This document shows positions 41,237 through 53,908 of a DNA stretch of 61,268 nt, in pieces. Numbering within the stretch: position 1 is the first letter of the stretch; every line of letters begins with the position of its first letter. A program made the translations under genes and the position numbers. The stretch spans positions 1 through 61,268 of the forward strand of contig JASJQH010000007.1 in the NCBI GenBank assembly GCA_040143965.1. The letters are read 5' to 3'. The notes below the pieces were generated by a model. That model did no database searches and was not told the origin of the DNA. It saw only the letters and a program-made list of their open reading frames with translations. Source of the DNA: Basidiobolus ranarum (Eukaryota).

Positions 41237-44200
41237 ATGGGGAATAACTTTTCAAGTACTATACCGTCGACTGCCACTGCAGGTATAGATAATTATGTTG
41301 GAGAAATAGGGGACATTCAATATGAAAAGAGGTAATCAAAAAGTCTCTTTGTTTCGTCAACGGTCACTTTAGTAGTCGAGTGAGCTTCATTATACCAACT
41401 TTATAATCCATCAGTTCTACACAATATGCTTTTCGTTTCAATTATTGGCTGTCCTCACAGATGAATTAAACAAACTGAACTTTGAATTCTCTTCACAGTT
41501 TAGGAAGTGCCCGGTTTATGAAAACCATTAGAGGTAGACATAAAGAAGGTTCAGTAGTGGTTAAGATATTTATAAAGCCCTATGTCGGACTATCTTTGGA
41601 TCCATACATCAGTCAATTACGCGGTACAGACTCCACTTTTCTACTTTATTTCTCATCCAATGAGTTTTATCCACCATCTTGCGTATAATCTCTGACTCTC
41701 TTAAATGTTCTAGCTGAAAGGGATAGATTGCTAGAAATTCCCAACGCTTTTCCTTATCAACGTATTCTTGAGACCGAAACAGCCGTATACCTAATCCGAC
41801 AATACTTCTTTTCAAACCTTTACGATCGTATTAGGTGAGTTATTTGATAGCGTTGGTTGTATTTTATTATTGAGAGTAAACGTTGACCACTTTCTTGAAA
41901 GTACTCGACCCTTTTTGGATTTAATAGAGAAAAAATGGATAGCATATCAATTACTTCGAACAGTAGCAGATGCACATCGAGATGAGGTATTGTGAGGGGA
42001 ACTGCTGTGGGTACAAAGAGGCATACTAAACTATCGTATCAGATATTCCATGGAGACATAAAAACTGAGAATGTTTTGGTGACTAGCTGGAATTGGGTGT
42101 TACTTTCTGACTATGCAAGTTTTAAGCCAACCTATTTGCCTGAGGTGAAGTTCTATCTGGTTACTCAAATGTTGGGATGTGATTCTTAACAAGTCGGTCA
42201 TTCTTCTAGGACAACCCGGCGGATTTCTCTTTCTTTTTCGACACTTCGTCAAGACGTTCATGCTACCTGGCACCGGAACGCTTCTATAAATCTGGCGATG
42301 GGGACGTTAGTACTGATGTAAGTTCCAGCTATTTTGTTAATACCTTCCCTTTTATTAATCGAGCCCTATCATTCACAGCCCGATGATGATGATCGTGAGC
42401 ATGAAGGCTCGTTAACCCCAGCCATGGATGTTTTCGCACTCGGGTAAGAGACCGGAAAGTCGGACATTCGCTTCGACAATACGTATTGAAATATGATTCC
42501 TTACATCTTTAGATGCGTTATCGCGGAGTTGTTTTTGGAAGGTTCACCGATCTTCTCGTTTTCTCAACTGTTGAGCTATAAGCGAAGTGAATATGACCCT
42601 CTTCCTAAGTTAGAACAAGTAGAAGATCCACATATACGGGTACCTTACATGTCTTCTCAGCACTCATCTTCACCACACTGACCTGTTTGTCTGTAGAGCC
42701 TGATCAAACATATGATACAACGGGATCCTACTCAACGCTTTACAGCTGAGCGATATCTTGCCGAATGGTAGTAATGTTTCTTCGTAATCGATGAGTATTA
42801 GTAGGGATTTTTGAGCCATTTACTTAACCAAATCCGTCTACCTTCTTCTAGGCGGGGCAAAGCATTTCCACAATACTTTTATTCATTCTTACATCAATAC
42901 CTTGAGACGGTTCTTGAATCGCACTCCACCATCATGTCAACTACCTCCGACGGCTCTCCCAACGATGCCGATCTTCGAATAGAGCGTATCTATCATGATT
43001 TTGATAAGATAGCATATTTTTTGGGATTTTACGAATCTCAAGCCCATTCAAACACCGAGACAGCCCACCTGTCAAGCGGGAAATCTAGAGGTAGATGTTA
43101 TTCAAGAAAGGTCAACTCATTTTTACCGATTAAATATAGCATACCCAATTACGATTCGGCCTCGGTGTACTCGGAAACTTTAAAGTTAAGTAAAGATGAT
43201 AACGGTGCGGTGATCTTTCTTTCCCTTATTTGCTCATCAGTTCGGAATGCTATGTATCCGTATTCCAAACTTTGTGCGTTAGACATGCTTTTGGCGATTA
43301 GTGAACACTTATCGGAAGAGATGAAATTGGATAGAGTGCTGCCCTACATTGTTAGTTTACTAGAGGATGATATAAGCTTGGTGAGAGGAATAGCAATAAG
43401 ATCCCTGACGAAGCTGTTATCTACTGTGGAGACTATCACCCCGATTAACTCGAAAATCTTCACTGAATATGTGTTTCCTCACTTATCCAAGTTTGTGGAT
43501 GATGAAGAGCTGTTTGTACGTGCTACGTATGCTGCGTGCATCTCTTCTCTAGCAGAAACTGCTCTAAGGTTTCTAGAATTATCTCAGGAGTTTTCAAATG
43601 AAAACAGACTACCGGTCGAAACCGACGGGGAGTCAGATGACGCATATGAGCCAACGTATGATCGAGCGCTCCAAGATCTACAAGTACTAGTTCAAGACCA
43701 AGTCACTCTCCTATTGATCGACACGGAAAGTTCAGTCAATAGAGCACTGCTTACAGGAATGACCAAGCTATGCGTTTTCTTTGGTAGACAAAAGACAAAC
43801 GACTTTTTGTTGTCCCATATGATCACATATTTAAACGAGCCTGATAGCATGTTGCGAAGTGGATTCTTTGAAGCCGTTGTGGGTGTTTGTAAATTCTTGG
43901 GCGGTAGATGTTTGGAGGAATATATCTTACCGTTGATGATACAAGCATTGACTGATCCTGAAGAGTATGTAATCGTCAAGGTACTCACCTCAATAAGTTC
44001 GCTGGCCGAGGAGGGATTGCTTGGTAAAGAAAAGACTCGTGAGATAGTGACCGCTTTGATTCCATTGCTGTATCACCCAAACGTCTGGATCAGGTACGGG
44101 GTGATACGGTTTATCGAGTCGGGGTGTAATGCGATATCTATCACCGATGTTTGGTGCTTCATTTATCCAATTATCGAACCTTACTTAAAGACAGATATTC

Positions 44201-53100: not shown

Positions 53101-53908
53101 TATAAATCTCCTTGTCAAGCTGTTAGCCACAAGAGGTGCATATTAACCTGGTTTGCATGCGCGTCCGCAACCGTCCGAAGTAACTGGAATGTTATCCATT
53201 TTTTCTCTATTAAGTCCAAGAACGGGCGAGTACTAGGAGAAGTGAGAAGTCAGCTTAAAGAATGACAAAATAATTTGAATGCAATCTCAATGTCGTTAAA
53301 ATATACCTAATTCTATCGTATAAGTTGGTGAAAAAATATTGACGAATGAGGTATACGGCTGTGTCTGTCTCAAAGATTCTTTGGTATGGTAAAGCATTTG
53401 GAACATCTACCAAGCCATCATGCTCCACTGTAAAGACAAAGTTAATAAGGCGTCGAAGAAAAATGACCATTGTATGTGTATATTAAAACTGTAAGATTTC
53501 TAAAAGAAAATCACTCAAAATATGAGGAAATTACCGTTAAGTTGATCAATGTATGGTTTTAAAGAGATGTCCGCATCTGGTTTTATGAAAATCTTCACTA
53601 CAACTGAGCCTTCTTTATGCTTTCCTCGTATAGTTTTCATAAATCTAGCACTTCCTAAACTATTTTTTTAAAAACGTTAAGTTGATTATGACTGTGACCA
53701 AGAGATTTCCATAGTATGTCAATCTTTCTGTAACGCAATATCTTGATTTGAAAGGATCTTTCTCACTACATAAATCTAGAGCTATGTATATCGAAAGTCA
53801 GAGAGAATTATACCTTTTCTCATATTGTATGTCCCCTAGCTCGCCTACATAGCTGTCAATACCTGCTGTAGCCGTAGAAGGTATTGTACTAGAAAAATTG
53901 TTACCCAT
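47108..53908 (-). CDS. VPS15: Vps15 copy B, intron-rich (about 31 introns by manual reading)
   Basis: [65 protein letters not shown]40 repeats, C-terminal NHTDCINDI...[13 protein letters not shown]. Confidence 0.95.

Follow-up and report, generated by a model that had tools for sequence, protein, structure and literature searches.

A contig of 61,268 nucleotides (nt) from the early-diverging fungus Basidiobolus ranarum (GenBank assembly GCA_040143965.1, contig JASJQH010000007.1), analyzed here at its full length as the window, carries two VPS15 genes that converge tail to tail. Copy A lies on the plus strand (41237..46838) and has 13 exons and 12 introns over 1558 codons, with the C-terminal WD40 part included. 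Copy B lies on the minus strand (47111..53908), where 31 introns separate 32 exons encoding a protein of 1533 amino acids (aa; P0004). The two stop codons are separated by a spacer of 272 nt (46839..47110), within which a purine-rich GA run of GGGAAA/GAGAAA units occupies 47024-47067. In the 5′ part of copy A (41237..42851, plus strand), exons 1-9 are accompanied by introns 1-9 (56-167 nt), which match the positions of B introns 1-9. Exon 10 follows as one uninterrupted exon (42852..45823, plus strand) that marks the maximal extent of an intron-free tract, and three further introns lie on its 3′ side (45824-45891, 46212-46280, and 46511-46582 or 46511-46561; with exons 11-12 they span 45824..46582, plus strand). 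The matching part of copy B, exons 10-29 (48134..52295, minus strand), combines 2927 nt of exon with 1235 nt of intron and carries 19 introns (B10-B28, 52-91 nt each) that are missing from copy A. An initial annotation of this DNA had reported a single exon of about 2.97 kb in copy A facing roughly 18-19 introns in copy B; the exon measures 2972 nt, the introns number 19, and the coordinates it gave (42852-45823, 52295-48134, 41237, and 53908) are all exact.

The model of copy B was obtained by exact mapping of the annotated protein P0004 to the minus strand. Its introns are 52-154 nt long and 30 of the 31 are GT-AG; the other, intron 31 (47355-47443, minus strand), is the sole GC-AG intron among the 43 introns of both genes, and its counterpart, A intron 12, is GT-AG. 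Copy B also includes two micro-exons of 17 nt (49683-49699, minus strand) and 26 nt (51979-52004, minus strand), and the equivalent residues are uninterrupted in copy A. Exons 1-10 of copy A were placed by exact mapping of the annotated protein P0002 (1312 aa), which gives nine short exons and the long one from 42852. The 3′ exons were modeled from homology to P0004 and to P0003, a protein of Basidiobolus meristosporus, together with splice-site enumeration; intron 12 has two possible acceptors, 46561 or 46582. An open frame of 1028 aa (42805-45891, plus strand) spans the long exon, and the full model has no internal stop in its 1558 codons, with the stop codon at 46836-46838. The public model P0002 reads past a GTAAGT donor at 45824 and ends 22 codons on (stop 45889-45891). 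The three exons that it leaves out (11-13) encode ~270 residues of the WD40 C-terminus, aligned and conserved with B through the final residue; the public model of copy A is truncated and should gain them. The B. meristosporus model P0003 also stops just past the intron 11 position. A purpose-written spliced protein-to-DNA aligner provided a second check of the models. With the B protein as query, it recovered 31/31 introns in B DNA and placed 12 in A DNA, 11 of them at the exact model coordinates and intron 6 displaced by 12 nt in an indel; it predicted zero introns within 42852-45823.

Domain content and phylogeny identify both copies as VPS15/PIK3R4, the regulatory kinase-like subunit of class III PI3-kinase. 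A VPS15-like helical domain (PF22956, E = 4.5e-31) and a WD40 match (PF00400, E = 4.7e-15) fall in exon 10 of copy A, and both PF22956 and the kinase domain PF00069 are listed for P0002 and P0004. An HGD-K-EN motif and an N-terminal MG myristoylation start are hallmarks of VPS15. The catalytic-loop motif reads HGDIKTEN in A and HGDLKTEN in B, with an MGNNFSS start, and H145, G146, D147, K149, E151, and N152 are invariant in an alignment of B with 11 outgroup VPS15 proteins. A database search returned 897 matches, the best 120 of which are all fungal VPS15-type proteins, and the Basidiobolus A and B clade is placed among fungal VPS15 in the tree described below.

In the A/B protein alignment, 11 of the 12 introns of copy A share both column and phase with a B intron (introns 1-5, 7-9, and 29-31). 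The twelfth, A intron 6, has the same phase as B intron 6 and lies 3 columns off within an indel. The first nine and last three introns had been described as common to both copies, and the alignment agrees, with the same phase for all 12; the last three introns of A, of phase 1, 0, and 2, correspond in order to B introns 29-31. Between these two sets, the 19 consecutive B introns 10-28 have no counterpart in A exon 10, and the first and last of the vacant sites delimit a minimal tract of 43090..45718 (plus strand). The alignment is gap-free within ±8 residues at 12/19 of these sites and shows gaps of 1-3 columns at the other seven, and no site has an insert approaching the length of the shortest B intron (52 nt). 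An expectation that the absence would be precise, without residual intron sequence or loss of flanking codons, is upheld, with no more than 1-3 gap columns at 7/19 sites. No intron survives inside the block and none has been lost outside it; under independent loss, a single run of 19 out of 31 introns has a probability of P = 13/C(31,19) = 9.2e-8. These data confirm that a block of 19 adjacent introns is precisely absent from copy A. The intron-rich state that was said to be kept about 270 bp away does serve as an internal control, in the form of paralog B across the 272-nt spacer.

The polarity of this difference was examined in outgroup genes taken from metagenome contigs, which were scanned with the alignment of B and 11 outgroup VPS15 proteins. 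The best 80 of 281 confirmed stretches were used, and the B protein was spliced-aligned to all 80. Most of these loci are nearest, among stored proteins, to Rhizina undulata or to two unnamed proteins, so the outgroups are mostly ascomycete-like. Across the 80 loci, 270 introns were predicted (0-11 per locus), of which 104 are frame-breaking. The remaining 166, located mostly in variable stretches (B 768-810, 870-1050, and 1386-1500), were set aside because they are possibly insertions modeled as introns. Nearly all of the frame-breaking introns (95/104) match a B intron in codon and phase, and they do so at nine B positions. Counted over the loci that cover each site, introns were present at B2 in 51/79, B3 in 11/80, B8 in 1/80, B9 in 1/80, B13 in 20/75, B17 in 3/66, B18 in 5/65, B23 in 1/55, and B28 in 3/54. 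The nine frame-breaking introns off B positions occupy eight positions; chance coincidence of 9/17 distinct positions with B introns has a probability of about 7e-16, and under a stricter filter (at least 3/10 identities per flank and no gaps) 7/8 positions are B positions. The local alignments at B13, B17, B18, and B28 (480, 707, 756, and 1236) are clearly homologous.

Because they are shared with outgroup fungi, at least these four introns of the tract are ancestral, older than the split between Basidiobolus and Dikarya, and were lost in A; B23 is tentatively placed with them. The proposal that the intron-rich state is the ancestral one is thus supported at B13, B17, B18, and B28 and lacks an outgroup match at the other 14-15 positions, which stay unpolarized because the outgroups are intron-poor. 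Introns common to A and B are by that fact older than the duplication, and they offer a yardstick for the rest: the outgroups share 4/12 of them, without the other 8, vs. 4-5/19 of the tract introns (Fisher P = 0.68-0.70). With such similar proportions, the tract introns look no younger than the shared ones. Were 15 unpolarized introns random gains in B, the probability of all of them falling within the tract (63.6% of the coding sequence) would be P = 0.0011. One outgroup locus, L080 (match 10001-14570), holds a remote relative of VPS15 that reaches ~35% identity to the best stored proteins and has introns of 32-36 nt; its frame-breaking introns all fall at B positions (4/4; B8, B9, B13, and B23).

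B. meristosporus has orthologs of both copies, P0003 (A) and P0005 (B), each recorded on a 172,275-bp contig, presumably the same one. A tree was built from 18 proteins, namely the A model and 17 of the 120 listed matches, with no rows dropped. In it, the A proteins of the two species are sister to the two B proteins, every one of these branches being at 100, and the same A/B topology came out of each of three regions (5′ flank, tract, and 3′ flank) analyzed separately. The duplication is thus older than the split of B. ranarum and B. meristosporus, and the copies are old paralogs and not recent duplicates. Over the whole protein, the A stem is 0.54 and the B stem 0.27. After the duplication, A changed at about double the rate of B across the tract (0.60 vs. 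0.27) and the 3′ flank (0.50 vs. 0.27) and at an equal rate in the 5′ kinase flank (0.135 vs. 0.130). The identity of A to B is 78%, 54%, and 54% in the 5′ flank, tract, and 3′ flank, and that of B to Rhizophagus is 71%, 48%, and 49%; the A-B distance normalized to the B-Rhizophagus distance is 0.56, 0.66, and 0.69 in the same order. By these measures the tract is not younger than its flanks. Between the two species, the A orthologs share 81% identity across the tract and 91-93% across the flanks, with just two 1-residue indels in the 991-aa tract, and the B orthologs differ by indels near introns 1, 6, 10, 11, and 21/22. This indel pattern hints that the A gene of B. meristosporus is also intron-free in the tract; the hint is weak and was not used as evidence.

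Synonymous divergence inside and outside the tract had been suggested as a means of telling whether the mRNA of A or that of B was the donor. The comparison was run, and fourfold degenerate sites of A and B match at 0.33, 0.27, and 0.33 in the three regions against chance expectations of 0.27, 0.26, and 0.27. The sites are saturated in all three regions, so the comparison discriminates no donor. Sequence comparison of the introns that A and B have in common gave z = 0.2-4.0 with no alignable similarity beyond the splice signals, and they show no sign of recent conversion. For functional RNAs in the retained introns, Rfam gave no match at E ≤ 0.1 in 40500-54500. The region-wise protein distances likewise contain no hint that the mRNA of B supplied the A tract after the duplication. 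No protein-level match was found between the 8.2 kb to the left of A and the 7.4 kb to the right of B, and a duplication larger than the gene was rejected; the duplicated unit is the VPS15 gene alone.

The pattern at copy A combines exact removal, strict adjacency, ancestral presence (B13, B17, B18, and B28), and introns retained on both sides. In described cases, such a pattern is put down to recombination or repair that uses a copy of a spliced transcript. We consider it probable that copy A underwent a concerted, internal intron loss mediated by complementary DNA (cDNA), in a single event or a very small number of them. Long ago in the Basidiobolus lineage, a duplication would have produced two convergent, intron-rich VPS15 genes, both with at least 16 introns at the start and probably about 31. 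Later, or at the duplication itself, the central 2.6-3.0 kb of A would have been replaced by a copy of a spliced transcript. This is likely to have happened by homologous recombination or gap repair, cDNA or the RNA itself serving as template and both junctions falling within the gene; the 19 adjacent introns would have been removed precisely, at once or in very few rounds, while introns 1-9 and the last three were spared. The mRNA of A itself (or a mRNA that predates the divergence of the copies) is most likely to have been the template, since tract and flanks are equally diverged from B. Copy A would then have remained an intact, conserved, and faster-evolving paralog. One cDNA-mediated conversion tract with both ends inside the gene is also what the initial annotation put forward; the single block of missing introns and the lack of intron-sized inserts accord with it, while we infer that RNA or cDNA was the intermediate, that a single event was involved, and which mRNA was the donor.

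Several observations weigh against this account. Copy A has no poly-A remnant and no junction signature of cDNA; such marks are not expected after so much divergence. The strict 3′ bias of poly-A-primed loss, which would include the 3′-terminal intron, is not observed, as A keeps three 3′ introns; real cases often lack this bias (PMC2395259), which therefore characterizes the strict version of the model only. Two or three adjoining conversion tracts, formed in succession, would look like one. The sequence of A is taken from the assembled contig, and its splicing is predicted from that sequence and from homology. Long exons are common on this contig, so the structure of A is not exceptional for the genome. 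Among the ancestral candidates, B23 is based on one locus (L080) with poor flanking identity, and 14-15/19 tract introns lack a match throughout the 80 outgroup loci.

A stepwise history, in which separate cDNA tracts or adjoining single-intron losses accumulated in A, is unlikely, though it deserves more credence than the alternatives that follow. Time would have been available, as A predates the split of the two Basidiobolus species and has the longer stem (0.54 vs. 0.27), and the frequency of long, intron-free exons on the contig suggests that intron loss is ongoing in the genome. Fully independent single losses, however, would yield one run of 19/31 with only the probability calculated above (9.2e-8), and they would not be expected to leave the block without a single surviving intron and the flanks without a single loss.

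It is improbable that copy A was instead born partly processed, through a duplication bridged by a spliced or partly spliced transcript. The normalized A-B depth, alike in tract and flanks (0.56, 0.66, and 0.69), is compatible with a single age, and a duplicated unit that comprises the VPS15 gene only, with flanks lacking similarity, would suit such an origin. The same distances fit a later conversion by the mRNA of A equally well, however, and an adjacent inverted layout with introns at both ends is the outcome of duplication at the DNA level; the spacer shows no poly-A tract, target-site duplication, or other mark of retroposition. A complete processed retrocopy was rejected: A still has 12 introns, is separated from B by 272 nt, and has neither an A-run after its stop codon nor a target-site duplication.

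Two specific versions of transcript-templated loss would account for the inner ends of the tract, and taken together we give them little weight, slightly less than a chimeric birth of copy A. In the first, the convergent layout itself is responsible: read-through or overlapping 3′ transcripts of A and B, whose stops are 272 nt apart, are proposed to pair with the spliced mRNA of A and prime reverse transcription internally. In the second, a wide double-strand gap in A is proposed to have been repaired directly from its own spliced transcript, with RNA or cDNA as the template. If either were true, the locus would preserve in nature the trace of transcript-templated repair over nearly 3 kb and 19 introns, and the conserved A/B pair in Basidiobolus species would let the event be dated and its junctions narrowed.

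The reverse polarity, with the structure of A ancestral and 19 introns gained in B after the duplication, is very improbable. It draws on the 14-15 positions without a match among the 80 outgroup loci, and it is refuted at B13, B17, B18, and B28, which ascomycete-like outgroups share in codon and phase. Absence from the outgroups says little in any case, as these also lack 8/12 introns that are certainly older than the duplication. Random gains would not spare both flanks (P = 0.001), and no mechanism is known for multiple adjacent gains, according to the excerpted text of Sharpton et al. (2008, PMC2395259). An assembly artefact that merged cDNA or transcript sequence into the contig at A, conceivable where the sequence of A rests on that contig, can be dismissed with similar assurance: within a 61-kb contig the exon runs on either side into sequence that bears introns, collapse of the two copies is ruled out by their identity of just 54% in the tract, and an independent B. 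meristosporus assembly encodes an 80%-identical A ortholog whose 991-aa tract shows no indels other than the two of 1 residue.

Concerted intron loss of the kind favored here for copy A has precedents in other eukaryotes. For Cryptococcus, Stajich and Dietrich reportedly described mRNA-mediated loss of adjacent introns in 2006. Sharpton et al. (2008, PMC2395259, consulted in excerpt) describe Cryptococcus genes with several consecutive intron losses and apply a run-length test to them. In that excerpt the losses are most often internal with the 3′-terminal intron kept, and long internal exons produced by intron loss are said to occur in many eukaryotes. The proposed explanations are internal crossovers, self-primed reverse transcription, break repair, and allelic recombination after 3′ loss. 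Copy A resembles the Cryptococcus genes in the precise and mostly internal loss of a consecutive run within one gene, in the appeal to recombination with spliced cDNA, and in the run-length argument itself. It differs in that those comparisons, as excerpted, involve orthologs of close species, whereas here the comparison is between old, neighboring paralogs of an early-diverging fungus and the run is of 19 introns. Retention of the 3′-most introns had been called atypical in the initial annotation; since loss in Cryptococcus is most commonly internal, and internal loss is on record in many eukaryotes (PMC2395259, same excerpt), the three 3′ introns kept by A are not atypical.

Intron loss has also been linked to very large exons (Lim et al. 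2021, PMC8476143, in the text available). The "extraordinarily large" internal exons of Niu, Hou & Li (2005, as represented in the available portions of PMC2395259 and PMC8476143) are similar to exon 10 of copy A, being very long internal exons amid normal exons and introns in intron-rich genes. That work, as represented there, was a statistical survey without an ancestral state, whereas here the intron-rich state is kept 272 nt away. The yeast model of Fink, in which poly-A-primed cDNA recombines with the gene (PMC2395259, excerpt), has in common with copy A a spliced-transcript template and the exact removal of introns together. It predicts a loss that includes the 3′-most introns, however, and because three 3′ introns remain in A, internal crossovers, internal or self priming, gap repair, or later allelic recombination would be needed, from among the routes discussed in the excerpt of Sharpton et al. 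(PMC2395259). A processed retrogene would likewise derive from spliced mRNA; copy A differs from one in having 12 introns, in adjoining its paralog, and in lacking a poly-A tract or target-site duplication. Among the papers listed in searches on Basidiobolus introns and intron loss, none, judged by title and abstract opening, deals with this locus.

The event is thus of a known kind and its mechanism is not new; copy A is a large and tidy further case. It is a clean and unusually large example of concerted internal intron loss (19 introns, 2972-nt exon), with the intron-rich state preserved in the adjoining paralog and with orthologs of both copies conserved in another species. Through it, an early-diverging fungus joins the lineages in which intron loss mediated by spliced transcripts has been inferred, and the case supports the published view that internal loss with retention of terminal introns is normal. 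Copy B, on whose positions 95/104 of the frame-breaking outgroup introns lie, is a well-preserved ancestral structure and a reference for the intron history of VPS15.

As to the contig at large, 12 open frames of at least 250 aa are listed for it. A Pfam scan of nine long frames detected no retroelement, no search aimed at retroelements having been made. Single long frames encode a PH-domain protein of 1142 aa (54571-57999, minus strand) and a PPR protein of 666 aa (7910-9910, minus strand), and an ammonium transporter (5080-6453, plus strand), a sodium:dicarboxylate symporter (14640-16139, minus strand), and a ZIP transporter (16951-18225, minus strand) each hold a whole Pfam domain in a single frame. 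Intron density on the contig is very uneven, and the 31 introns of copy B are an unusual survivor on it. The 785-aa frame of an alanyl-tRNA synthetase gene (36693-39050, plus strand) enters the Pfam catalytic-domain profile at position 158; introns seem to have been kept only at the 5′ end of this gene, the classic pattern of 3′-biased loss.

One of the tract introns of copy B has an unusual donor. B intron 28 (48239-48302, minus strand) begins with GTATCCTA, which resembles the U12-type 5′ splice-site consensus; a convincing U12 branch-site motif was sought near its 3′ end and none was found. At three ascomycete-like loci (L020, L026, and L029), the corresponding codon is interrupted in the same phase by an intron whose donor is GTAAGT or GTAAGG. 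In B. meristosporus, reportedly a minor-intron-rich species, 249 minor introns have been counted, amounting to 0.554% of all introns (Larue & Roy 2023, PMC10639083, in the portion consulted), and these figures imply a total of roughly 45,000 introns in that genome.

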